From Candidatus Parcubacteria bacterium (GTDB lineage: Bacteria; Patescibacteriota; Minisyncoccia; SW-4-49-11): DNA of 38,649 bases. The notes below the pieces were generated by a model. That model saw only the letters and a list, made by a program, of their open reading frames with translations. It did no database searches and was not told the origin of the DNA. The translations under genes and the position numbers were made by a program. Where the stretch lies: positions 1 to 38,649 of the forward strand of contig JBEAQD010000021.1 of the NCBI GenBank assembly GCA_041164045.1, given 5' to 3'. This document shows positions 2,104-31,815 of the stretch, one piece after another (position 1 is the stretch's first letter; every line of letters starts with the position of its first letter).

Positions 2104-3027
2104 TCAGGTTTTGTCCCGACTCGTTATGTAATCAGCCAAAGCCAATAGTGGTTTTGCTCTTTCATCCCAAGGAGCTAATGCCTCCTTAGCCTCTAGTATC
2201 AACGCCTTGGCCCGCTCTCGAGACCCATCAAGCCCAAATAACTCGGGATATGTTGTCTTATCAGCAGTCAAATCCTTGCCGGCGGTTTTGACAAATATAT
2301 CGCTAATGGCATTAAAATCTAGAATATCGTCAGTAATTTGGAAAGCTAGACAAATACAACTAGCATATACTCTTAGAGCCTCCAACATATCGTTGTTTGC
2401 CCCTCCAATAATGGCTCCACTGACCACACTAGCCTGTAACAGTGCTCCAGTCTTATGAAGGTGGATGTACTCAAGTATGTCAATATCTAACTCCTTGCCT
2501 GCACATTCCAAATCTACCACTTGACCTCCCATTAGCCCTCTAGCCCCCGAGGCAAGAGAAAGCTCACCAACTACAGCCAGCAACCGCTCGGCTGGAATGC
2601 CGGGACTGCGATGTGACACCATCTCAAAAGCTCTGGCGAACAAAGTATTGCCGGCTAGAATTGCATTAGCCTCACCATATACCTTATGGTGAGTGGGTCG
2701 GCCACGACGCAAGTCAGAATTATCTATTGGGGGTAGGTCGTCGTGTATCAGCGACATGGTATGAATCATCTCAATTGCCACAGCCGTGGGCATAGCCAGA
2801 ATAGGATTCCCTCCAGCTAGCTCGCAAGCCGCCAAGCAAAGAATCGGCCGAAGTCTCTTAGCACCAGCCAATAGTGAATACCTCATCGCTTCCCTGAGTT
2901 TTTCGGGAAACTCGGGTTCTGTACCTAGCGAGGTGTCAAGGTCTGCCTCCACTTGCAATCGAGTTGTTTCCAGATAAGTGGCGAGATTAAAGTCTGAATT
3001 TTGTTGAGACAGTCTTTTCTGAGCCAT
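2104..3027 (-). CDS. crtE: Geranylgeranyl diphosphate synthase (type II trans-polyprenyl synthetase, CrtE-like)
   Basis: 307 aa. Motifs present: GKRLRP-type (AKRLRPIL), first Asp-rich (LIHDDLPPIDNSDLRRGRPT), GQVVD, KTGAL, second Asp-rich (FQITDDILD), KTAGKD. From memory, end-to-end colinear with cyanobacterial CrtE. Visibly higher G+C than flanking DNA. Confidence 0.85.
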   Translation of the reverse strand: MAQKRLSQQNSDFNLATYLETTRLQVEADLDTSLGTEPEFPEKLREAMRYSLLAGAKRLRPILCLAACELAGGNPILAMPTAVAIEMIHTMSLIHDDLPPIDNSDLRRGRPTHHKVYGEANAILAGNTLFARAFEMVSHRSPGIPAERLLAVVGELSLASGARGLMGGQVVDLECAGKELDIDILEYIHLHKTGALLQASVVSGAIIGGANNDMLEALRVYASCICLAFQITDDILDFNAISDIFVKTAGKDLTADKTTYPELFGLDGSRERAKALILEAKEALAPWDERAKPLLALADYITSRDKT

Positions 3028-3096: not shown

Positions 3097-3325
3097 TTGT
3101 CTACGATGCATCTCATCTTTTTCAGTTTTAAGGTTGAAATTTCTTCTATCTTCCTTAGGAGGGAGTTCCCGAAGGAGGAAGGTGGATAGAATATAATTTT
3201 TAGATCAGTCCACGACCGGCACTTCGTGCCACCCTCGCCGGAGAGGGATAAAAATGTATCCCACCCCGTCCAGCAGAGCTGTACACTCCTCAAGAGGGGA
3301 ATTAGCTCATTACACCACCCACTTC
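3097..3325. repeat. GC-rich mosaic hairpin repeat locus R1
   Basis: Contains the modules GTGGATAGAAT...TCCAC, GGCACTTCGTGCC, CCCTCGCCGGAGAGGG and GGGGAATTAGCTCA, shared with loci at 5795, 9588 and 31521. Its left end is the 23-bp motif TTGTCTACGATGCATCTCATCTT. Confidence 0.75.
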
Positions 3326-5794: not shown

Positions 5795-5945
5795 TATCCC
5801 TCTTTGGAGAGGGGTAACCGCTTGCTGTGGGTGTGGATAGAATGAAATCTTTAGCTCAATCCACCTCCGGCCACTCCCGTATAAATACGGCAGTGACCAC
5901 CTCCTCCAAAGGAGGATAGTTTATATAACTTTTCCCTACGATTTA
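5795..5945. repeat. GC-rich mosaic hairpin repeat locus R2
   Basis: The 49-nt block at 5795-5843 matches 9722-9770 with 2 mismatches. It is followed by GTGGAT..ATCCAC, CACCTCCTCCAAAGGAGGA and a CCCTACGAT end motif shared with 10097-10108. Confidence 0.8.
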
Positions 5946-6273: not shown

Positions 6274-6546
6274 TTAGTCTGGAGTAGGCCTACCAACCAA
6301 ATAAACAATATTGTTGGGATGTTGGGAGCGATGTTGAGAATATAAATTATCCAAAAAGAATTGCCAAGCAGCTTGGAATATAGGGTTTCTCTGAATAAAT
6401 TTTATATCTATACCTGATTCTAAACCTCTTTGTAGAGTTAAATGAATTAGATCACCCAAAACTTGATAATGATATCTATTATTAGGATACCTAATACAAT
6501 ATTGATATGCTAATTCTAACTGAGAAAAATCAGCTAACCTTTTCAT
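6274..6546 (-). CDS. Small hypothetical protein, paralog A (about 90 aa, C-terminal RPTP motif)
   Basis: Start taken at the ATG 6 nt after a GAGG Shine-Dalgarno. An in-frame GVG-position start (GTG at 6570) is an alternative. The ORF-track start at 6603 lies upstream of the predicted -10. Promoter, leader, N-terminus and C-terminus (LVGRPTPD) parallel 7414..7689. Confidence 0.5.
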   Translation of the reverse strand: MKRLADFSQLELAYQYCIRYPNNRYHYQVLGDLIHLTLQRGLESGIDIKFIQRNPIFQAAWQFFLDNLYSQHRSQHPNNIVYLVGRPTPD

Positions 6547-6574
6547 CCCAAACCTCGATGCAAAGGACACTATT

Positions 6575-6603
6575 TTTATAAGATATAATATTTTAATCTG
6601 CAA
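6575..6603 (-). promoter_or_regulatory. Promoter of cassette A
   Basis: Minus strand TTGCAG-17-TATAAA, followed by the conserved leader AATAGTGTCCTTTGCATCGAGGTTTGGGATG. Homologous to 7718-7746. Confidence 0.55.
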
Positions 6604-7413: not shown

Positions 7414-7689
7414 TTAGGAAGGAGTAGGCCTAGATACGAGGAAATTGCTTTTTCTTGTATCTTGAGCTGTTGGGGTAGTCTTAGCAAGAATTTCACATGC
7501 TTGTCCGAGTACGGGGTACTGATCGAACAGGGTGGACAGTACTTGAACATTTTGCTCTCCCATTGTACTCACATACCGAAAAACATTGATGACTTGATCA
7601 TAAAGGGTTTTACCGTCATCAACTGAGTGAGATAGAATGTACTTATCGTAAGCACAAGAAACTTTAGAAACTAGAGAATTGAAATTCAT
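7414..7689 (-). CDS. Small hypothetical protein, paralog B (about 91 aa, C-terminal RPTP motif)
   Basis: Start at the ATG 6 nt after GAGG. The alternative in-frame ATG at 7713 sits only 4 nt after the -10. Ends LVSRPTPS. Shares promoter and leader architecture with 6274..6546. Confidence 0.5.
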   Translation of the reverse strand: MNFNSLVSKVSCAYDKYILSHSVDDGKTLYDQVINVFRYVSTMGEQNVQVLSTLFDQYPVLGQACEILAKTTPTAQDTRKSNFLVSRPTPS

Positions 7690-7717
7690 CCCAAACCTCA
7701 ACTTGAAGGACATTATT

Positions 7718-7754: not shown

Positions 7755-8519
7755 TTATACTTTTATATTGAGTTTTTTATACACCCACATCCAATACCCT
7801 ACTCCTACCAACACCAGCCACCAGAGTCCAAGCCAAGCTGAGATACCAATCCAAAAGCTCAAGCTCCAGAAACCAGACAGACTAAGCCAATAGGAAATAT
7901 TATTATCTATTTGTTTGTGATTAGCAAAAAGCAGATAGAATCCAGCAAAGGCTATAATACTGGTCACCATCCAACCAAAGAAATTCATCAATGGCACTCC
8001 ATAATACCAACCCTGTATTTCCCAAACCCAAAATCCTAAAGCCGTGGCTCCTGGATCAAGAATTAGATCAAAAGTCATCATCAAAATGGCTCCAATTAGA
8101 ATCTTGAGCCACACTTGTCTGATTTGCAACCTACTCACCAAGACCAAACTAAAGAAAAATATCGGTACCCAAGATAAACTCACTGTCCAAGGTACTAGCC
8201 CAAAGACTTTGAGATTACCAAGCACCTCACCATATACAAAATTACTATAGGGCCAACCCGTCGCAATAGCAAAAGATTCTATCAGAAGTGGATAGCTGAA
8301 CATGATTAATATTTTCCACCAATCTTGTCTCCAATTGAACCATTTTGATACCCCATATAATATAGGCAAGGCAATCAAAACATTAGTCACCTGCGAAATG
8401 ACTTGGAATATCCAAAATGGGAAAGGTAAGGCTTCTGGCCTAAAACTAAAATACACCACAAAAAATCCACTCAGGATTAAGATAATGGCTGGAATAATTA
8501 GTAATAATTTTTTCTGCAT
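7755..8519 (-). CDS. cruF: Polytopic membrane protein, carotenoid biosynthesis protein family (DUF422/CruF-like carotenoid 1,2-hydratase)
   Basis: 254 aa, about 7 TM helices. The blocks TGWPYSNFVYGEVLG..K..G.VPW and LDPGATALGFWVWE...YYGVPLMNFFGW match my recollection of the PF04240 signature. Divergently paired with a UbiA prenyltransferase, as in lyeJ-cruF loci. Confidence 0.55.
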   Translation of the reverse strand: MQKKLLLIIPAIILILSGFFVVYFSFRPEALPFPFWIFQVISQVTNVLIALPILYGVSKWFNWRQDWWKILIMFSYPLLIESFAIATGWPYSNFVYGEVLGNLKVFGLVPWTVSLSWVPIFFFSLVLVSRLQIRQVWLKILIGAILMMTFDLILDPGATALGFWVWEIQGWYYGVPLMNFFGWMVTSIIAFAGFYLLFANHKQIDNNISYWLSLSGFWSLSFWIGISAWLGLWWLVLVGVGYWMWVYKKLNIKV

Positions 8520-8553
8520 ATATGATATACTTATATTATATAATTATATCACA

Positions 8554-9393
8554 ATGAGTATTACTAAACTACTACGAATTTCTAGACCCAGATTTTGGAT
8601 TTATCTTTTAGGTCCTTATTTGATTGGAAGTATTCTTGCCTTTGAACCGATGCAAATTATCTGGCAGTGGCAATTTTGGCTTGGATTTGTCTACTTTACA
8701 CTACCGGCTAATCTCTTGATTTATGGAGTCAATGATATTTTTGATTATGAGACTGACAAACTTAACCCCAAAAAACAGAATTATGAAGCTCTAGTCACTC
8801 CGGCTGAACATACTTCGCTTTGGACTGTTATTTTGCTCACTAATATTCCTTTTATTCTAGCTATATATTGGCTAAACCCCTTGACTTTATTCGGGTGGCT
8901 TGGATTTATTATCTTGGGAGCACAATATTCAGCTTGGCCAATTCGAGCTAAGTCGAAGCCATTTTTGGATTCTATTTTTAATATTCTATATATTTTCCCT
9001 GGAGTGATTGGGTATGCTCTCTTGGCGAGTGAACTTAATCTGGACTGGAAATTATTATTAAGTGCTGGATTATGGACCATGGCTATGCATACTTATTCAG
9101 CTATACCAGATATTGAAGCTGACCGGGCTAGCTATACTCCAACTATCGCCACTGTACTGGGAGCTAAGTTGACCTTAGTGTATTGTTTTATCTGCTATAC
9201 TCTAGCTGGAATTTTGTTAGCCCAATTTAGCACTGTACTTGGGATTATAATTGCTATTGTATATGGATTTATGATTGGCTTTAGTTGGTCTCAAAATACC
9301 GCTAAAATCTTCAGATTATACACATATTTCCCAGCCCTAAACACAATAATTGGCTTGATTTTATTCTGGAGTATTGTGATTTGGTATAGGTAG
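8554..9393 (+). CDS. UbiA-family prenyltransferase, lycopene elongase (LyeJ/CrtEb)-like
   Basis: Start trimmed to MSITKLLRISRPRFW, because the ORF-track N-terminal extension overlaps cruF. Motifs NDIFDYETDKLNPKK (NDxxDxxxD), YSAWPIRAKSKPFLD and YSAIPDIEADR (second Asp-rich). Eight or nine TM helices. Confidence 0.7.
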   Translation: MSITKLLRISRPRFWIYLLGPYLIGSILAFEPMQIIWQWQFWLGFVYFTLPANLLIYGVNDIFDYETDKLNPKKQNYEALVTPAEHTSLWTVILLTNIPFILAIYWLNPLTLFGWLGFIILGAQYSAWPIRAKSKPFLDSIFNILYIFPGVIGYALLASELNLDWKLLLSAGLWTMAMHTYSAIPDIEADRASYTPTIATVLGAKLTLVYCFICYTLAGILLAQFSTVLGIIIAIVYGFMIGFSWSQNTAKIFRLYTYFPALNTIIGLILFWSIVIWYR

Positions 9394-9406
9394 CTTACAA
9401 AAACCC

Positions 9407-9439
9407 TTGACAAATTCTAAGAAATGTGGTATTTATAAT
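9407..9439 (+). promoter_or_regulatory. Strong promoter of candidate ncRNA-a
   Basis: TTGACA at 9407-9412, with TATTTA/TATAAT options 17-21 nt downstream. The 18-nt core AAAAACCCTTGACAAATT (9399-9416) is identical to 15968-15985. Confidence 0.6.
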
Positions 9440-9442
9440 AAG

Positions 9443-9566
9443 TATTGAGTTTAGAGACCAAAAACCCTACGAGCATCGCCTTGATGTTCATCAAATGGTC
9501 TACCTAAACCAATACACCTTATAATTTTCCACACACACTCCCCGGCTAAGGCCGGGGTCTTTTTTT
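9443..9566 (+). ncRNA. Candidate small structured RNA (ncRNA-a, about 120 nt), family unknown
   Basis: No ORF. 5' GUAUUG-GUUUAG-AGACC pairs with GGUCU-CUAAAC-CAAUAC, enclosing a UUGAU-GUUC-AUCAA hairpin. Ends in the intrinsic terminator CCCCGGC UAAG GCCGGGG UCUUUUUUU (9540-9566). Confidence 0.45.
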
Positions 9567-9587
9567 GCCAAATTATTATATTATAAA

Positions 9588-10108
9588 TCTCCCGTAGCGG
9601 AGGCTTTTTACCCCCTCTCATACATCGTTTGTGAGGGGGGCGATCTTTGTTCTAAAAATTCCCCTCTCCTCCCAAGGCGGATTTCATTGAGGGGTGCTCA
9701 TAGGGCGGGGTGGATGCATTTTATCCCTCTTTGGAGAGGGGGAACCGCTTGCGGTGGGTGTGGATAGAATTTACAATTCAAAATCTATAATGTATAACTA
9801 CAGATCAACTATTCCACCCCGTCCTCTCCTAAACAAAAGTATAGGAGGGACCACCCCTCAAGGAGGGGAATTTAGCTCAGTCCACATCGTCCATAAAGGT
9901 CATCTACTCCAAAGGGAGACAAAAATCTCAAATACCCTGTCCCCCTTTGGAGGGGGAAGCCTGCAAGGCGGGGGTGGATAAAACATAAGCTAGAGCTCAA
10001 TCCACCACCGGCACTCCGTGCCACCTCCTCCAAAGGAGGACAAAGTAAAAAACCATGGGCGACTGAAAGGTTGAGTACATCCGCCTCGGGCGTGACGCCC
10101 CTACGATC
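9588..10108. repeat. GC-rich mosaic hairpin repeat locus R3 (largest, about 520 bp)
   Basis: Concatenated hairpin modules. Shared blocks: 9722-9770 with R2; 9907-9926 identical to 31715-31734; 9939-9978 with 31610-31650; 9652-9700 inverted copy of 15824-15867. The end motif GGCGACTGAAAGG...CGCCCCTACGAT relates to the R4 TIR. Confidence 0.8.
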
Positions 10109-10123
10109 AAAATGAAACTTTAT

Positions 10124-11626
10124 CTACCCCTCTCCTCTCAATGGACTGTCTTGTTTTATTTTGGCTATTCTTTTATAGACCATCTCTGCACTAATCAGTT
10201 GGATGGGGACTCCAATACCTGGATTGGTTCCTGCCCCTACATAGTATAGATTTTTGACTTTTTTGGAATAATTATTAGGTCTGAAGATTGCAGTTTGATT
10301 AATAGTATGAGCAAGCCCAAGAGCTGTACCCTGATAAGCATTGTAATCTTGCTGGAAATCTTTGACACTATATAATCTCTTGTAAATAATTCTATTTTGC
10401 AAATCGGGTATATCCATCTCTTCTTGCATAATATTGAGAACCTTATCAGCATAGGCTTCTAATTGCTCCTCAGTATACTCGAGTCCAGCCGCAATTGGGA
10501 CAAGTATAAATAAATTCTCATCCTCAGCAGGGGCGACACTAGGGTCGGTCTTGGATGGAGCACAGACATATAGAGAAGGATCTTCTGGCCACATAGGATC
10601 ATCAAAAATTTGTTTAAAATTCTTCCTCCAATCTTGAGAGAATAAGAGGTTATGATGTACCAAGCTATCCACTTTACCTTTGATCCCAAGATACATAATA
10701 AGCGCTGAAGGAGCTAGGACTTTTTTATCCCAATATTTCTCATCATATTGGCGATGCTGGGCTGGTAATAGATTTAGCTCGGTATGAGTCATATCGGCAT
10801 TCGACACCACTATATCTGCTTTTATAATTTCACGAGACTCAAGCTCTACTCCTGAGGCCTTACCATTTTCTACAATAATTTGTCTCACTCCATTGCCACT
10901 AACCAAATTTACTCCATTTTTCTTGGAGATATTAACCAGAGCTTCAGTAATTTTATACATACCACCTTGTGGGTAAAAAACTCCCATATTAAAGTCAATA
11001 TGATTCATAATACTGTATAGAGCTGGTGTATTATAGGGAGAGCTACCGAGGAATACTAGAGGATATTGGAGAATTTTTTTGACTAAGTCATTTTTGAAAT
11101 ATTTACTCACATAGGAATCCATATCACTGAATACAGACAATTTGGAGCCTTCTATCATAGTCCTGAAGTTTATAAAATCAAAGATAGAGTCATAATTCTT
11201 ATACATAAAGCCATCTTTGGCAATTTCATATTGCTGTCGAGCTTTGTCTAAATATTCTTTTAATTTCTCTCCTGATCCTGGTTCTAACTCCTCCAAAACA
11301 GGGATATCCCGCTCTAAATCTGAGAACATATCGATAATTTTATTATCATCTTTGAAAAATATACGATAAGAAGGCTCTAGCCGAATCAAGTCCAAGTGAT
11401 CCTCTACCTTCTCCCCCATAAATTCAAAAAAATTCTCAAATACATCTGGCATCAGATACCAAGACGGTCCCATATCAAACTTGAATCCCTCAGCCTCAAA
11501 GATATTGGCTCGTCCTCCTAAATTAGAGTTTTTCTCATATAAACTCACTTCATATCCTTTCTTGGCCAAGATACAAGCAGTAGCAAGCCCACCAATTCCT
11601 CCACCGATAATAATTACTTTTTGCAT
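10124..11626 (-). CDS. Phytoene desaturase family FAD-dependent oxidoreductase (CrtI/CrtD-like)
   Basis: 500 aa. N-terminal dinucleotide fold IIIGGGIGGLATACILAKKGYEVSLYEKNSNLGGRA. C-terminal YYVGAGTNPGIGVP signature of the CrtI family. Confidence 0.8.
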   Translation of the reverse strand: MQKVIIIGGGIGGLATACILAKKGYEVSLYEKNSNLGGRANIFEAEGFKFDMGPSWYLMPDVFENFFEFMGEKVEDHLDLIRLEPSYRIFFKDDNKIIDMFSDLERDIPVLEELEPGSGEKLKEYLDKARQQYEIAKDGFMYKNYDSIFDFINFRTMIEGSKLSVFSDMDSYVSKYFKNDLVKKILQYPLVFLGSSPYNTPALYSIMNHIDFNMGVFYPQGGMYKITEALVNISKKNGVNLVSGNGVRQIIVENGKASGVELESREIIKADIVVSNADMTHTELNLLPAQHRQYDEKYWDKKVLAPSALIMYLGIKGKVDSLVHHNLLFSQDWRKNFKQIFDDPMWPEDPSLYVCAPSKTDPSVAPAEDENLFILVPIAAGLEYTEEQLEAYADKVLNIMQEEMDIPDLQNRIIYKRLYSVKDFQQDYNAYQGTALGLAHTINQTAIFRPNNYSKKVKNLYYVGAGTNPGIGVPIQLISAEMVYKRIAKIKQDSPLRGEG

Positions 11627-11718
11627 ACTATTACTAATTTAACTTATTCTATTTATATCATACCATAAATTAAGATATAAAAGTATGTTATAATATATTT
11701 GCTTTCTCTTGAGGGTAT

Positions 11719-11911
11719 TATGCCTGATTGGCAGTTTTTTCTAATCTGGTCCGCAGTAATCTTTATATTGGCTGCTATAAGCTTTAGATTTCATCTACTA
11801 ACCCCAGAAGATAAAAGAACTGAAGGAAGATTGCAACCTTTTAATTTTTTTCTTTTAGTGGCAATACCTATCTTAGTTTTAGCTTATGTACTATATTTGT
11901 TATCTAAATGA
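11719..11911 (+). CDS. Small two-TM membrane protein (63 aa)
   Basis: ATG at 11719 preceded by GAGGG at suitable spacing; the ORF-track start at 11699 is less likely. Two hydrophobic helices. Followed by a terminator. Confidence 0.45.
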
Positions 11912-11928
11912 TACTTATAATCAAAAAA

Positions 11929-11965
11929 GCCTCGGAGTAACACCTCACGAGGCTAATTTTTATTG
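11929..11965. terminator. Bidirectional terminator between convergent genes
   Basis: GCCTCG-loop-CGAGGC stem flanked by AAAAAA upstream and TAATTTTTATT downstream. Confidence 0.55.
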
Positions 11966-12017
11966 TTGTTATATCAAACTTATATAGTACTAATATTTTT
12001 GATTATTATATTGATTA

Positions 12018-12311
12018 CTATTCAACTACCGGCTCAGACATTTCTGGAGACATCATTACATTCTTAATCACATCTGAGTCCAAAGGATCGGTTACTTCTA
12101 AATTCTCCGCAGGCAGAACTTCTGATTCCACTGATCCTGAATTTGATGACACGGTATTAGATATAGGTTCAACCTCAGGACTAACGTTATTAAGAGTTTC
12201 AAACTCTAGATTCGAAAACTGTCCATAGAATAATAGAGACACAGAGGCAATGGTAAATACCAACAAGAGATAAGATGTAGAATTACTAATTTTAGTATGT
12301 AAGATTTTCAT
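12018..12311 (-). CDS. Hypothetical N-terminally anchored acidic protein
   Basis: 97-aa ORF with one N-terminal hydrophobic segment and a Ser/Glu-rich tail. Confidence 0.4.
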   Translation of the reverse strand: MKILHTKISNSTSYLLLVFTIASVSLLFYGQFSNLEFETLNNVSPEVEPISNTVSSNSGSVESEVLPAENLEVTDPLDSDVIKNVMMSPEMSEPVVE

Positions 12312-12441
12312 ATAGTTTATATTTATTAATTATTAATAATTATAAATACATTATATATCATATTATATTTTTATGCAATAGTTGTTAGACTGTAGCAAAA
12401 AAAGAATTTGTATGTTAAAATTTTAACAATCACTATAATAT

Positions 12442-13795: not shown

Positions 13796-14110
13796 GTGAA
13801 AACACGAGACTCAAATAATGGAGGTCATAATAAACCAAACCCACCTTGGGGATTCAAAGAACAAAATCCCCGCAGTAAAATCGCTGAAGATGTAAGAAAA
13901 TTAATCATTAGTTTGATAGTAGAGTATCAAATTCAATACAATCAATATATCACAGCCATTGAAGTTTGGAAGGTATTTAATTCTCATCCTAGTATTAGAA
14001 ATCATAGAGACTATAATTTTCATTTATTAACGACTCTCCCTAATTGTCCAATAAAGGCGAAGTTAGATGTAGACAACGCTGGGAATATCATTGTAATCCA
14101 ACCCGAGTAA
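13796..14110 (+). CDS. Hypothetical small protein (104 aa, GTG start)
   Basis: GTG start 8 nt after GGAG. The terminator CCCGAGTA-loop-TACTCGGG TTTT overlaps the stop codon. Confidence 0.45.
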   Translation: MKTRDSNNGGHNKPNPPWGFKEQNPRSKIAEDVRKLIISLIVEYQIQYNQYITAIEVWKVFNSHPSIRNHRDYNFHLLTTLPNCPIKAKLDVDNAGNIIVIQPE

Positions 14111-14130
14111 CTACTGTGTACTCGGGTTTT
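14102..14130 (+). terminator. Rho-independent terminator
   Basis: Perfect 8-bp stem CCCGAGTA/TACTCGGG followed by TTTT. Confidence 0.6.
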
Positions 14131-14142
14131 AAGTTAAATACT

Positions 14143-14170
14143 AAAAAGCCACTATGCCGAAGCATGTGGC
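14143..14170 (-). terminator. Rho-independent terminator of the 14606..14185 two-gene unit
   Basis: Minus strand GCCACAUGC UUCG GCAUAGUGGC followed by UUUUU. Confidence 0.6.
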
Positions 14171-14184
14171 TCATAAAAATGTAA

Positions 14185-14424
14185 TTAAATTTTTATTTTA
14201 CGACTTATTTTTCGCCACAATAAGTACCAAATATTGATCCGCACTCCATTAAGCTCTAATATTGCTCTTTTATATCTTTTTTCCAGATTTATAAAGTATC
14301 TATCAAACTTATCTGGATCTTCAAAATATAATCTATCAAAACTTAATAATCGCCTATATTCAATTTGTGATTTCACATTTCTAAACAGCTGTCTAATTGT
14401 GACAAAGCTAGATTGTGATGTCAT
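14185..14424 (-). CDS. Hypothetical small basic protein (79 aa)
   Basis: Its start overlaps the stop of the upstream membrane peptide in an ATGA arrangement, indicating translational coupling. Confidence 0.45.
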   Translation of the reverse strand: MTSQSSFVTIRQLFRNVKSQIEYRRLLSFDRLYFEDPDKFDRYFINLEKRYKRAILELNGVRINIWYLLWRKISRKIKI

Positions 14425-14606
14425 GTTAAAATTCTAACAATTGAGGAGTTTTTATTGTCATTTTTATCTTGTTGCCAAGCTAAAAGAACTATACCAAAGC
14501 CTGAAATTAGTAAGAGTATTAATACACTGACACATGCACCAATGAAACTTATTCTTGATTGTGGTTGAAGTGGATTCGACATAACCAGATAAATGTCAAG
14601 GTACAT
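14421..14606 (-). CDS. Small single-TM membrane peptide (61 aa; alternative start MSNPLQ at 14582)
   Basis: Central hydrophobic helix FIGACVSVLILLLISGFGIVLLAW. ATGA overlap with the downstream ORF. Confidence 0.4.
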   Translation of the reverse strand: MYLDIYLVMSNPLQPQSRISFIGACVSVLILLLISGFGIVLLAWQQDKNDNKNSSIVRILT

Positions 14607-14649
14607 ATTTTATATAACATATCTCTAAAAATAAGACAAGTAATTAAAA

Positions 14650-14674
14650 ATCTGGCAACAGTGTGTGCCAGATT
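14650..14674 (-). terminator. Rho-independent terminator
   Basis: Minus strand AUCUGGCA-loop-UGCCAGAU followed by UUUUUAAUUA. Confidence 0.55.
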
Positions 14675-14693
14675 TTGATGTAGGATGTAGCAA

Positions 14694-14864
14694 TTAATCA
14701 TACACAATATTGCCACCCACTATGCGTGGAGGGTTTGTGCGATCCTGATATGCTCGCCTTGCCTCTTCACGCATAGTGGCTTGAATAAACTGGGTCAAAC
14801 GGATTTCTTTTTCTGTCCTACCAAGGGAATGATTACCGAACTCAAAATGATTTTGATGAGACAT
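14694..14864 (-). CDS. Possible 56-aa ORF (below the ORF-track cutoff)
   Basis: Translated by hand as MSHQNHFEFGNHSLGRTEKEIRLTQFIQATMREEARRAYQDRTNPPRIVGGNIVYD. Bracketed by the TTGACA-16-TAATAT promoter (14895-14922) and a terminator (14650-14674). Confidence 0.35.
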   Translation of the reverse strand: MSHQNHFEFGNHSLGRTEKEIRLTQFIQATMREEARRAYQDRTNPPRIVGGNIVYD

Positions 14865-14894
14865 TTTTATTATGCATTGGCATAGGCAAAAACT

Positions 14895-14922
14895 ATATTA
14901 TCACAACCAAAAAATTTGTCAA
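14895..14922 (-). promoter_or_regulatory. Sigma70-type promoter for 14694..14864
   Basis: Minus strand TTGACA (14922-14917), 16-nt spacer, TAATAT (14900-14895). Confidence 0.55.
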
Positions 14923-14978
14923 TAGCATATATGAAAGCCCCCGCAGTTTACCTACGGGGGCGATTAGAATCTAAGATA

Positions 14979-15254
14979 TTATTTCCAACATAGTCCCCAT
15001 CTCTGATACCAAGGCTTCTGCCTTATTAAAGAGCATCTTGCCTTTGGGTCATCTGGCTCTGGAAAAGTTTTGTCACTAAAAAATGTATACAAACCATTTT
15101 TTGCTAAAGATAATATGTACCCAGGATTGGGTGCTGACATAGTTGGTGTATATACCCTCAAAGCCAGTACCGAAACAGATATAAGGACATACGTTAATAT
15201 TGTTCTCTTACGCACTGGGTGTGATCGCAAATTTGAGTGTTCTTTGTTTTCCAT
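14979..15254 (-). CDS. Hypothetical small membrane-associated protein (91 aa)
   Basis: ORF with a TTTACA-17-TATAAA promoter (15281-15309) and the GCCCCCG...CGGGGGC terminator hairpin (14937-14961). Confidence 0.45.
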   Translation of the reverse strand: MENKEHSNLRSHPVRKRTILTYVLISVSVLALRVYTPTMSAPNPGYILSLAKNGLYTFFSDKTFPEPDDPKARCSLIRQKPWYQRWGLCWK

Positions 15255-15316
15255 GATTTTTGACAGCAGAGGTCGACATATTTATATCATATCTGACAAA
15301 CTTTGTAAAGTCTAAT

Positions 15317-15345
15317 TTGACAAATTAGATGATTTTGGGTATTGT
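15317..15345 (+). promoter_or_regulatory. Sigma70-type promoter, divergent from the 15281-15309 promoter
   Basis: TTGACA (15317-15322), 17-nt spacer, TATTGT (15340-15345). Confidence 0.5.
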
Positions 15346-15419
15346 GGATAGGTCTTTTGGGAGAGATTAACTTGGAAATTCAGGAACTAAAAACTAACAT
15401 AAAAAGGATTCAAGCTGAA

Positions 15420-15578
15420 ATGAGATTTTCAAGAAAAAATATATTAAAAAATCATAATCTAAAAGTAAAAATTGAATCTTTGAAACAAAAAATCAATGCT
15501 CTACTACAGTTAGAAGATGACTGGCTAACAGTACATTATAGCGAAGCAAGGTATATCCCTAAAAGAGTAAATCACTGA
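15420..15578 (+). CDS. Possible small coiled-coil protein (52 aa from the ATG; ORF open from 15342)
   Basis: The ORF-track start at 15342 lies inside the predicted -10. The first ATG (15420) follows AAGGA. Followed by the CCCACC...GGTGGG hairpin at 15585-15609. Confidence 0.35.
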   Translation: MRFSRKNILKNHNLKVKIESLKQKINALLQLEDDWLTVHYSEARYIPKRVNH

Positions 15579-15583
15579 TATAA

Positions 15584-15901
15584 CCCCACCCCCGACTTTT
15601 GGAGGTGGGATTAAAAATTTTTATATAAAGGTGGTTAAAATCAAGTTTAATCTGTGATAGTAGGGGCGACCTTTCAGTCGCCTGTGCCTTTGTATTCTAT
15701 CCTCCCTCGGGGGAGCTTTAAGTCCCTCCTATATTTATTTAGGAGGTGGGTTGTACCATAGGTGACGGAGGAGGACGAAATTCATAATTCATAATTTCAA
15801 ATTATTCCACCCTCCCCCTGCGGGCACCCCTCAATTTATCTCCCGTAGGGAGAGAGGGGAATTTTAGTACCAAATACAGTCTCCTGAAAGGTCGCCCCTA
15901 C
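15584..15901. repeat. GC-rich mosaic hairpin repeat locus R4
   Basis: Hairpin modules, including an inverted copy of the R3 module (15824-15867) and GGTGACGGAGGAGGAC (15761-15776), which is inverted at 16383-16398. Confidence 0.75.
15660..15901. mobile_element. MITE-like 242-bp unit with perfect 18-bp terminal inverted repeats
   Basis: GTAGGGGCGACCTTTCAG at 15660-15677 is the exact reverse complement of CTGAAAGGTCGCCCCTAC at 15884-15901. No ORF inside and no obvious target-site duplication. Confidence 0.45.
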
Positions 15902-15975
15902 AAAAAATTATAACAATTTTATATAGTAAAAATACAACCTTTTAAGCTATTTTATAAATATTATTTTAAAAACCC

Positions 15976-16004
15976 TTGACAAATTTAAGAAAGTATGATA
16001 TATT
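15976..16004 (+). promoter_or_regulatory. Strong promoter of candidate ncRNA-b
   Basis: TTGACA (15976-15981), 17-nt spacer, TATATT (15999-16004). Same 18-nt core as the ncRNA-a promoter. Confidence 0.6.
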
Positions 16005-16010
16005 CTTTTT

Positions 16011-16296
16011 AAGCTTCAGCTAAGCAGAAATGTCTACATAGTTTTTTTCTTATCAGATTGTATCTGAAAGATAATAACTGAGACCACTCTACTTAGAAGA
16101 AGCCCCATCCACGGTGTGGGAGACATCGCATGTCCCCCGCCACTCACCACTCGGAGCCCCAAAATGCCCCGATCCCCGCCCTAATAAAAACCATCTATAG
16201 GTCATAAAAAAACCTATAGACCATAATAACTCCGAGCTGTTTGCCCTGCAAACAGCTCACCTCGTTTATATATACCACCCCATAAGTGGTTTTTTA
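16011..16296 (+). ncRNA. Candidate structured RNA (ncRNA-b, about 285 nt), family unknown
   Basis: No ORF longer than a few codons. C-rich core. Hairpins: GGGAGACAU-CGC-AUGUCCCCC, UCUAUAGG...CCUAUAGA, an 11-bp GAGCUGUUUGC-CCU-GCAAACAGCUC (16235-16259), and long-range CUCGGAG/CUCCGAG. The terminal ACCAC...GUGGU UUUUU is at 16274-16296. Confidence 0.45.
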
Positions 16297-16354
16297 ATTT
16301 TGTTAAAGTTTTATATAGATGAACTTAAAGTCTTTGCTACGAAAAAATTTACTC

Positions 16355-16490
16355 TACCCCGTCGTAAATAAGATTTGCTCCTGTCCTCCTCCGTCACCTA
16401 CGGCGACACCTCCCCCCTGCCTACCGCAGGCAGGCAAGGGAGGACAATATAAACTATCCATGCTTAACGCAGGCAGGCAAAGAGATAACC
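16355..16490. repeat. GC-rich mosaic hairpin repeat locus R5
   Basis: GTCCTCCTCCGTCACC is inverted relative to R4. CCTACCGCAGGCAGGCAAGGGAGGACAA is shared with 31769-31795. Confidence 0.7.
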
Positions 16491-16509
16491 ATAAATTCAT
16501 AAATATCTC

Positions 16510-17199
16510 CTATCTATACTCCTTATGCCTCTCTAGATAATCTACTAGTCTCTCGGCTGTGTATCGGCTGGGGTCTAGGACTTGAGGGGTTTGGAATATA
16601 TCTTTAATTTGTTTTGAGATATAGCCATAATGAGTGCAGGCTAGTATTATATAATCGGGTTTAGTTTTAACTTGTTTTGACAGATTCTGTAATATTTTGA
16701 CTGACTGAGTATATTCTATATCTTGATTATATACATCTTTCTCTATACTATCTGCCAGATTAGTGCAGGATAGATAATCTAAGTTATAATTGAACTGAGC
16801 TAAGTATTCCTGATAAAATCCTGTCTGTATAGTAGCTTGAGTGGCTAAAAGCAAGCCTTTTTGAGACTTGAGCTGACTAAATTCATCTAAATATTCTCTC
16901 AATGGCACAGTCACTCCTAATACCTGCTTGGTTGGATGATTTTGTGGTAGCCAAGTTGATTGTATATATCTAATAGTGCTCACTGATGCGGTATTGCAGG
17001 CTAATACTACTAAATTACAACCTTGTCGGAATAGTTTTTCTACTCCTACTATGACTATATTTCTGATTTGATCTTGAGTTTTATCTCCCAAAGGTAGTGA
17101 TTCTCTATCCTGATAACAGATATATAGTATGTCTGCGATTGTTCCAAACATATCGGCAATTCTCTGACCTCCTAATCCTGTATCATAGAAGCCTATCAT
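16510..17199 (-). CDS. murI: Glutamate racemase
   Basis: 229 aa with DTGLGG, ACNTAS and ACTHY active-site blocks. Confidence 0.85.
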   Translation of the reverse strand: MIGFYDTGLGGQRIADMFGTIADILYICYQDRESLPLGDKTQDQIRNIVIVGVEKLFRQGCNLVVLACNTASVSTIRYIQSTWLPQNHPTKQVLGVTVPLREYLDEFSQLKSQKGLLLATQATIQTGFYQEYLAQFNYNLDYLSCTNLADSIEKDVYNQDIEYTQSVKILQNLSKQVKTKPDYIILACTHYGYISKQIKDIFQTPQVLDPSRYTAERLVDYLERHKEYR

Positions 17200-31520: not shown

Positions 31521-31815
31521 AAGATGAGATGCATCGTAGACAAGTTGTGACTTTTGTAAGTGATACATGAAAGTAGTTTATATAGTTATAAAAAATAGCC
31601 CTTAATTTTGTCCCCCTTCGGAGGGGAGAAGCCTGAAAGGCGGGGGTGGAGGTAGACAACTTTTAGGGTATACTATATTTTTAACCCTATCCACCCTCCC
31701 CCTACGGGTACTCCCTCCAAAGGGAGACAAAAATACAAGTTACAAAATTCAATCCACCCGCCTCCTCCCTACCTACCGCAGGTAGGCAAAGGGGGATAAA
31801 TTAACTCCTCCATCC
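31521..31815. repeat. GC-rich mosaic hairpin repeat locus R6
   Basis: Starts with the 23-bp motif AAGATGAGATGCATCGTAGACAA, the exact reverse complement of 3097-3119. Shares modules with R3, R4 and R5. Confidence 0.8.

Follow-up and report, generated by a model that had tools for sequence, protein, structure and literature searches.

The stretch of DNA analyzed here (the window) is the 38,649-nucleotide (nt) contig JBEAQD010000021.1 of a Candidatus Parcubacteria bacterium (assembly GCA_041164045.1). It contains a triad of clustered genes that specify a CruF-like membrane protein, a LyeJ-type prenyltransferase of the UbiA family, and a CrtID-type carotenoid desaturase. The features of the locus are listed in Table 1. 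An earlier note, made from the sequence alone, had described these three open reading frames (ORFs) and a fourth for a polyprenyl synthase, and all four are present with the coordinates and strands that it gave. The window has a GC content of 35.7%, and Pfam scans identify a housekeeping set that includes ValRS, UvrA, PolA, XseA, RuvC, EF-P, SufS/NifU/SufC, G6PD, and 6PGD. In a collection of species representatives, the close relatives of the window UbiA are found in metagenome-assembled genomes (MAGs) named Paceibacteria, Parcubacteria, Minisyncoccia, Paceibacterota, or Saccharibacteria; several of the MAGs are from Lake Mendota according to their isolate names, and one (ZE-Oct18) is apparently from Lake Zurich. 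The window lineage is a member of the freshwater Patescibacteria (Paceibacteria/Minisyncoccia), within the candidate phyla radiation (CPR), and the low GC content and the CPR names of the close relatives bear out the small AT-rich, host-dependent bacterium envisaged in the earlier note.

Table 1. Features of the locus and conservation of the encoded proteins. Identity is that of the amino acid (aa) sequence to the relatives of the window; dN/dS, the ratio of nonsynonymous to synonymous substitution rates, was obtained by the Nei-Gojobori method for the window versus relatives, with dS from 0.4 to >1.5.
Feature	Positions	Strand	Model	Identity	dN/dS
Polyprenyl synthase gene, geranylgeranyl diphosphate (GGPP) synthase type, on GC-rich island	2104..3027	-	PF00348 (E 1.3e-52)		
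cruF-like gene, 254 aa, polytopic membrane protein of the carotenoid hydratase family	7755..8519	-	PF04240	67-92%	0.11-0.16
lyeJ-type UbiA prenyltransferase gene, 279 aa, putative lycopene elongase/1,2-hydratase	8554..9393	+	NF009516, PF01040	76-95%	0.06-0.11
Variable ubiA-crtID spacer with promoter-to-terminator unit and GC-rich hairpin repeats	9394..10123				
crtID gene, 500 aa, predicted flavin adenine dinucleotide (FAD)-dependent phytoene desaturase/carotenoid 3,4-desaturase	10124..11626	-	NF058655	88-96%	0.02-0.06
Empty slot where homologous clusters have crtB; only a 97-aa unannotated ORF (12018-12311)	11627..12441				
UvrA, for comparison				90-95%	

Family assignments of the triad proteins

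The ORF of the prenyltransferase opens mechanically at 8302, but the family match and all of the 279-aa homologs begin at the ATG at 8554. The protein matches PF01040 (E 1.1e-20), in agreement with the UbiA-family call of the earlier note, and the two Asp-rich motifs cited there (NDxxDxxxD and PDIEAD) correspond to NDIFDYETD at residues 60-68 (nt 8731-8757) and PDIEAD at residues 185-190 (nt 9106-9123). Its score with the NCBIfam model NF009516 (PRK12875) is 260.2 bits, relative to a cut-off of 205. In a calibration of this model with proteins from genuine crtD-lyeJ-cruF clusters, four haloarchaeal or nanohaloarchaeal proteins encoded at the lyeJ position scored 379-429 bits (Halolamina 429, Nanohaloarchaeota MAG 379) and the protein of a Flavobacteriaceae triad 231; proteins of two other CPR-type clusters scored 210-222 and that of a Pyrinomonadaceae cluster 271. 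The earlier note had considered a grouping with quinone or archaeal-lipid prenyltransferases, and this was not found, the scores with the UbiA, MenA, MqnP, DGGGPS, and homogentisate-phytyltransferase models being 20-41 bits versus 260 with NF009516. With two related prenyltransferase models, NF010119 and NF009608, it scores 139-152 bits, which is under their cut-offs. The identity to haloarchaeal and nanohaloarchaeal lyeJ-position proteins is 35-40%, and a homolog that is 78% identical carries the JGI name lycopene elongase/hydratase. Its 31 close relatives are 68-94% identical to it, whereas the next proteins reach 58% at most, and all 50 of the columns that are conserved at ≥93% among 62 homologs are retained. 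The neighboring genes cruF and crtID are 34 and 730 bp away, respectively, an arrangement that is kept in 11 relatives. Judged by its sequence and context, the protein is most likely of LyeJ type, a putative lycopene elongase/1,2-hydratase.

The desaturase has the amine-oxidase/CrtI architecture (PF01593 and NAD_binding_8), with the FAD motif GGGIGG at residues 8-13 (nt 11588-11605). It scores 508 bits with crtI_fam and is about equally near to the solved structures of CrtD (PDB 4REP, E 1.3e-72) and CrtI (PDB 4DGK, E 4.6e-68). The generic CrtI/CrtD assignment of the earlier note can be sharpened, because residues 4-483 pass the equivalog model for bifunctional phytoene/3,4-desaturases, NF058655, by a small margin (656.3 bits, cut-off 640). 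This model presumably rests on the dual activity of Haloarcula japonica C0507, and the window desaturase is a predicted bifunctional CrtID. C0507, formerly CrtD, has both CrtI and CrtD activities, and the two have been demonstrated only for H. japonica C0507 and D1086 (PMC11946383).

The 254-aa protein encoded by the divergent gene, across a 34-bp spacer from ubiA, matches PF04240 (Caroten_synth) with E 7.6e-37 and 127.7 bits relative to a cut-off of 25, and the DUF422/CruF-like call of the earlier note, which hinged on this match, stands. Its best NCBIfam matches are the two models for bisanhydrobacterioruberin hydratase, TIGR03460 (100.8 bits, cut-off 154.7) and NF041333 (87.4 bits, cut-off 300), and it scores 58.3 bits with that for γ-carotene 1'-hydroxylase, NF045693 (cut-off 400); it is filed here as CruF-like, without equivalog status. 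When other proteins were scanned for calibration, the CruF of the Flavobacteriaceae triad (L020) was also under the equivalog cut-off and two haloarchaeal/nanohaloarchaeal CruFs passed. The window protein retains all 23 columns conserved at ≥93% among 33 CruF sequences, and its identity to any CruF outside the lineage is only 29-38%. No useful PDB relatives were found for LyeJ-type UbiA or CruF. The family assignments of the earlier note were right.

Conservation and ancestry of the cluster

In all 11 of the related species-level MAGs that were retrieved, the triad is found in synteny, flanked by valS and uvrA, on contigs of up to 425 kb. No stop codons or frameshifts are present in the triad orthologs of 12 sets (the window and 11 relatives), CrtID is conserved to the same level as UvrA and ValRS, and dN/dS values of 0.02-0.16 indicate that purifying selection on each of the triad genes is strong. 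The triad is most likely functional and vertically maintained, to judge from these patterns. Its genes have a GC content of 36-38%, which matches that of the genome; this full amelioration indicates that the acquisition is old. That the triad is instead what is left of a horizontally acquired cluster in decay, no longer serving any function, would be in keeping with the loss of crtB and with the insertion of toxin-antitoxin genes and repeats between ubiA and crtID, but this explanation is extremely improbable and is effectively refuted by the dN/dS values, the intact reading frames, and the retention of all family-conserved residues, together with the housekeeping-level conservation of CrtID.

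The closest counterparts of the triad outside the lineage include the phytoene synthase gene, crtB. A Pyrinomonadaceae MAG of the Acidobacteriota (L116, GCA_019694345.1) has the genes cruF-NUDIX(-) ubiA(+) crtID(-) crtB(-), which is the order and orientation of the window with the addition of crtB. Apart from the lone Cytophagales UbiA described below, the closest extra-lineage proteins are from four-gene clusters of 49-56% GC (identities of 59-63% for CrtID, 44-49% for UbiA, and 31-38% for CruF) and from Pyrinomonadaceae/Blastocatellia. Among 80 crtB-anchored metagenome loci, crtID is beside crtB in 69, a LyeJ-type gene is also present in 37, and cruF also in 12, all of these counts being lower bounds because many of the contigs are short. 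In the groups that were recovered through the prenyltransferase, with complete neighborhoods, crtB adjoins crtID in haloarchaea, in loci L013 and L014, and in Pyrinomonadaceae. Because the same order and orientation and the closest sequences are found in Pyrinomonadaceae-type clusters, the ancestry of the window triad is likely of this Acidobacteria type, from a four-gene crtB-crtID/ubiA/cruF cluster such as that of the Pyrinomonadaceae MAG.

Other small-genome lineages that are CPR-named or CPR-like have complete ids-crtB-crtID-ubiA clusters, often amid uvrA/B/C, photolyase, and uvdE genes. In neighbor-joining (NJ) trees, which are weak evidence because they were made without bootstrap, the genes of the other CPR lineages fall in a clade separate from that of the window lineage; based on these separate clades, CPR lineages probably acquired such clusters at least twice. 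In L029, L030, L033, and L034, which belong to these other lineages, crtB-crtID-ubiA is located between or beside uvrA, uvrB, uvrC, photolyase, and uvdE, and in the window uvrA is 6.5 kb from the triad. The recurrent linkage of carotenoid and UV repair genes may constitute a light-stress island.

A lone LyeJ-type UbiA gene (L011:10001-10840) was found in a 'Cytophagales' MAG from Lake Mendota (JBIKRJ010000010.1). Its product is 69% identical to the window UbiA and is sister to the lineage in the NJ tree. The contig is genuinely from Bacteroidota (it encodes a type IX secretion system (T9SS) sorting domain, DUF4421, and trpE/G), the GC content of the gene is equal to that of the contig, and no crtID, cruF, or crtB is present within 10 kb. 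This distribution implies gene exchange between freshwater Cytophagales and the window CPR lineage, and it may hint at the host of the latter.

The earlier note had also placed a GGPP synthase gene 5 kb from the triad. The gene is present, but it is not part of the conserved unit, being located on a GC-rich island that is restricted to a subclade: it is found in the window, L002, and L003 and is absent from the site in L006-L008, L010, L012, and L025-L027. Its product scores 420 bits with the NCBIfam CrtE model NF045685, which is below the cut-off of 460, and passes FPPsyn (334 bits, cut-off 275). The first Asp-rich motif, in the context EMIHTMSLIHDDLP, is preceded by Met at -5 and Ser at -4, which under the chain-length rule would make the protein a GGPP synthase of cyanobacterial/plant type. 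With a GC content of 47.7% versus 35.7% for the window, a dN/dS of 0.28, which reflects a constraint weaker than that on the triad, and an in-frame stop at codon 11 of the L002 copy, the gene is accessory, recently acquired by horizontal transfer, and outside the conserved triad.

Predicted pathway and the source of lycopene

We consider the triad to be a functional, vertically maintained bacterioruberin-type carotenoid module of freshwater Paceibacteria that came from a four-gene cluster, a reading to which we assign a probability of roughly 0.7; its substrate, product, and role, like every step of the pathway, are predicted from homology. (i) CrtID would desaturate phytoene to lycopene, by analogy with H. 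japonica and Arthrobacter. (ii) The LyeJ-type UbiA would add a C5 unit derived from dimethylallyl diphosphate (DMAPP) to C-2 of one ψ-end of lycopene and hydrate the 1,2 bond. CrtID would then introduce a 3,4 double bond into the resulting C45 intermediate. (iii) Elongation and 3,4-desaturation would recur at the other end to give C50 bisanhydrobacterioruberin, and the CruF-type hydratase would add water to the C5 side chains, forming bacterioruberin-like tetra-hydroxy C50 membrane pigments. The likely role of such pigments would be photoprotection or oxidative protection and stiffening of the membrane. The earlier note had seen no phytoene synthase or cyclase, and Pfam scans of the window ORFs of at least 80 aa likewise give no SQS_PSY or lycopene-cyclase match and no candidate for a C50 cyclase; the product is predicted to be acyclic.

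Several results weigh against this reading. The first group concerns crtB, for which a profile hidden Markov model (HMM) was used that recovered every expected crtB and none in the window lineage. It detected no crtB in the 38.6-kb window (with --max, in all ORFs of at least 50 aa), nor in the 10 kb on either side of the triad in the 11 relatives. A search for remains of the gene upstream of crtID, in any frame, in the window and the upstream regions of 12 relatives gave a best E of 0.8; these searches covered about 20-40 kb per genome, genomes of this kind being near 1 Mb. The profile was used instead of tblastn with Pantoea CrtB, which caught the crtB of the haloarchaeal loci and of L013 and missed that of L014, and regular-expression motifs for phytoene synthase were discarded because they missed the positive controls too. 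The crtB-directed searches of protein and metagenome collections, none of which is a whole-genome search, also returned no member of the lineage. A protein-database search with CPR crtB gave 22 matches, none from the window lineage, and one with a 16-sequence crtB profile, in which two of the sequences are Bacteroidota-like, was dominated by Bacteroidota. Searching metagenomes with the CPR crtB profile gave 80 loci, none more than 64% identical to any lineage protein. A donor-like crtB profile was run against a representative library, and following 30 representatives of low-GC-type composition led to no lineage member; one candidate, on a 1.02-Mb contig, belongs to a different lineage of small genome size, in which the ids-crtB-crtID-ubiA cluster is complete. 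The second group concerns the remaining chemistry. To our knowledge, the biochemically characterized bacterial members of this type of system are from Actinobacteria only. The CruF-like protein is under all three of the NCBIfam CruF equivalog cut-offs, and its regiospecificity could be that of a C40 1,2-hydratase or of a C50 side-chain hydratase. Pfam scans identified no methylerythritol phosphate (MEP) or mevalonate genes in the window, and most freshwater CPR classes reportedly lack a C5 pathway and can make prenyl diphosphates of C10-C20 only (PMC9166423), a difficulty for the supply of DMAPP and isopentenyl diphosphate (IPP).

The missing crtB could be accounted for if the lineage has no phytoene synthase at all, and the episymbiont takes an acyclic carotenoid (lycopene or neurosporene) together with DMAPP/IPP from a pigmented host or the surroundings. 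In such a salvage-and-tailor pathway CrtID, as a 3,4-desaturase, LyeJ, and CruF would remodel the imported carotenoid into the cell's own C45/C50 pigments. We regard this as unlikely, although it draws on several observations. crtB is cleanly gone from the ancestral cluster, yet purifying selection on the three genes downstream of it has remained strong over a long divergence; it is the gene that adjoins crtID in the clusters of haloarchaea, L013/L014, and Pyrinomonadaceae; and no crtB search recovered the window lineage. The 69% identical Cytophagales UbiA, the nearest outside the lineage, comes from Lake Mendota, the source of several of the lineage MAGs, and points to gene exchange with Bacteroidota. 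CPR are known to rely on hosts for lipids and cofactors; they are reported to have neither fatty-acid synthesis nor C5 isoprenoid pathways (PMC9166423), and Saccharibacteria rhodopsins have been proposed to use host-made retinal (PMC9296517). Against import, the part of each genome that was inspected is small, the acquisition of a GGPP synthase near the cluster in one subclade makes most sense if the enzyme feeds an endogenous crtB product, and the persistence of a full CrtID equivalog fits with synthesis de novo. The likely hosts usually have lycopene only as a minor intermediate, no carotenoid uptake system is known, and we know of no salvage-and-tailor carotenoid pathway in any organism. 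Because only a small part of the genome is visible and a subclade has gained a GGPP synthase, the location of crtB elsewhere in the genome is more likely than a host-derived substrate.

The same families might alternatively carry out a different chemistry, yielding a C45 mono-elongated carotenoid or a C40 hydroxylated one, with CruF in the role of 1',2'-hydratase that it has in cyanobacteria and Deinococcus, or the UbiA protein might prenylate a non-carotenoid lipid. The sub-cut-off scores of the CruF-like protein and its distance from CruFs outside the lineage, the lower NF009516 score of the UbiA protein (260 bits versus 379-429 for the haloarchaeal/nanohaloarchaeal proteins), and the fact that no bacterial cluster of the window-type clade has been characterized are all compatible with this proposal. 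It is nonetheless improbable in light of the joint inheritance of precisely those genes, crtD, lyeJ, and cruF, that Haloarcula and Arthrobacter have as a set, the scores of at most 41 bits with models for quinone and lipid prenyltransferases, and the preference of the CruF-like protein for the bisanhydrobacterioruberin hydratase models (101 and 87 bits) over the γ-carotene 1'-hydroxylase model (58 bits).

A Nanohaloarchaeota MAG (JALDAN010000013.1, 45% GC), from a DPANN symbiont, has crtD-lyeJ-cruF (L018:548-3657) at the very end of a contig. crtB is absent from the 12.8 kb examined, an absence that allows no conclusion because of the position of the triad at the contig end; this case may parallel that of the CPR.

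Intergenic features and relation to known systems

The spacer between ubiA and crtID contains two types of element. On the plus strand, the region 9407-9567 has promoter-like TTGACA/TATAAT sequences followed by a 127-nt unit (9441-9567) that comprises a long hairpin and an intrinsic terminator (9540-9557). The minimum free energy of the unit is -41.7 kcal/mol versus -20.8 ± 2.9 for shuffled sequences (z -7.2). L001 and L012 have the same unit directly after ubiA, the inner stem showing compensatory changes, and other relatives lack it. Nothing in Rfam matches the unit, and 9407-9567 is a candidate for a small RNA or a small mobile element. The rest of the spacer (9570-10123) is filled by GC-rich palindromic hairpins of the type TCCCTCTTTGGAGAGGGG, and the spacer has a GC content of 46% versus 36% for the genome. 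Further hairpins of this type are located at 3231-3248, 5797-5814, and 31611-31628. With up to three mismatches, the pattern has nine matches on the two strands, representing about five distinct sites, versus 0.37 expected. Pieces of 30-80 nt from the spacer and from the region 14110-16510 recur at scattered, mostly intergenic places in relatives, and the hairpins look like a repeat family of the repetitive extragenic palindrome (REP) or miniature inverted-repeat transposable element (MITE) kind. Two matches to the whalefall-1 RNA motif (RF01762) in the spacer, of 29.7 and 22 bits, are below the gathering score of 37. In several relatives (L025-L028; for example, L025:11332-11995 and L027:11532-12195), the spacer contains genes for a PIN-domain toxin and a 97-aa partner, in what is taken to be a toxin-antitoxin pair, and other inserts occur at this place among the relatives. 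The spacer appears to be an insertion hot spot.

The region 14110-16510 itself, of about 2.4 kb in a gene-dense small genome, contains no ORF above 91 aa and nothing that matches Rfam at E ≤ 0.1; parts of it are kept at 80-90% DNA identity in L002, L005, and L001, and other parts are dispersed short repeats. The small ORFs beside cruF were considered as C50 cyclase subunits and were rejected, as they are hydrophilic, have no Pfam match, and are poorly conserved. Two such hydrophilic ORFs, 6274-6603 (-) and 7414-7713 (-), have similar C termini (…LVGRPTPD and …LVSRPTPS), are poorly conserved among relatives, and may be a small paralogous family. The CruF of the Pyrinomonadaceae MAG (L116:4693-5982) is fused to a NUDIX domain, in a protein of 429 aa; the window CruF has no such domain. 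Long CruF reading frames of 434-447 codons from stop to stop are also found in L099, L101, L102, and L105 and may be of similar makeup. Type-1 IPP isomerase is an enzyme of the NUDIX family, and the elongase could thus receive DMAPP through the fused domain.

That CPR have these three genes has been known since 2023, when lyeJ, crtD, and cruF were described in Patescibacteria of Lake Baikal and bacterioruberin was proposed to function in the adaptation of membranes to cold (Haro-Moreno et al. 2023, PMC9948471). The earlier note overstated the unexpectedness of the genes in such an organism, which is further reduced by the ids-crtB-crtID-ubiA clusters of several other small-genome or CPR-named lineages. 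The Baikal Patescibacteria are of the same phylum and class (Paceibacteria), also come from a freshwater lake, and have the same three genes, but these were recovered mainly in read bins, either on separate reads or with cruF distant from lyeJ/crtD (PMC9948471), whereas the window triad is contiguous and is syntenic in 11 MAG species. The main text and one supplementary file of that report contain no crtB, phytoene appearing only in a figure legend in which LyeJ is named 'phytoene elongase,' and the supplementary file does not have the crtB KEGG number K02291 (PMC9948471). A survey of freshwater CPR makes no mention of carotenoids (Chiriac et al. 2022, PMC9166423). New here are the contiguous, syntenic locus flanked by housekeeping genes, the selection analysis, and the CrtID assignment. 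Also new are the likely descent of the cluster from one of Acidobacteria type, the finding that it has lost crtB specifically, and the recognition that the GGPP synthase is accessory.

The prevailing view is that CPR bacteria do not synthesize their own lipids or most isoprenoids, and a pigment module under strong selection in a lake lineage that is widespread would mean that even minimal cells benefit from pigmented membranes. The clean loss of crtB sharpens the question of what CPR take from their hosts, the choice being between a crtB elsewhere in the genome and the tailoring of host-made carotenoids. The finding would gain in interest if whole genomes prove to be without crtB; if the lineage does lack phytoene synthase, a salvage-and-tailor pathway would be a chemical marker of CPR host dependence. 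Bacterioruberin-type clusters (crtB-crtID-ubiA with or without cruF) are also much more widespread in uncultured bacteria than the picture of haloarchaea plus Actinobacteria suggests.

Among the characterized systems, CrtEb of Corynebacterium glutamicum (PMC3598387) is, like the window protein, assigned to the UbiA family and is a lycopene elongase for C50 carotenoids. The decaprenoxanthin system of this organism needs the C50 ε-cyclase CrtYe/Yf and has no CruF or CrtD (PMC3598387), whereas the window has no cyclase match. Lye-CrtD-CruF of Arthrobacter agilis and A. bussei (PMC9122864) is closer, with a bacterial host, a clustered triad, and proposed roles in the membrane and in cold adaptation. 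The identity between Arthrobacter and Halobacterium Lye, 36-37% (PMC9122864), is comparable to the 37-40% between the window UbiA and the haloarchaeal lyeJ-position proteins. In contrast to the window, Arthrobacter has separate CrtI and CrtD enzymes, requires crtB (as indicated by silencing), is free-living, and has a complete isoprenoid supply (PMC9122864).

In H. japonica, c0507-c0506-c0505 (CrtD/'CrtID'-LyeJ-CruF) constitute the route that leads from lycopene to bacterioruberin (Yang et al. 2015 as cited in PMC11946383; Yatsunami et al. 2024, PMC11946383). The window has the same three protein families, also clustered, and its desaturase and prenyltransferase pass the models matched there or by haloarchaeal lyeJ-position proteins. 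It differs from haloarchaea in sequence, with identities of 37-45% for CrtID and UbiA and 29-33% for CruF, and its CruF is under the haloarchaeal equivalog cut-off. The haloarchaeal genes are co-directional (crtD-lyeJ-cruF) with crtB within 1-3 kb, whereas in the window cruF and ubiA are divergent, crtID is located past the variable spacer, and the neighborhood is without crtB. The Pyrinomonadaceae cluster (L116) and the metagenome contigs of 49-56% GC differ from the window in having crtB directly upstream of crtID and, in L116, the 429-aa NUDIX-fused CruF in place of one of 254 aa, but their gene order and orientation are identical to those of the window and, apart from the lone Cytophagales UbiA, their sequences are the closest outside the lineage.

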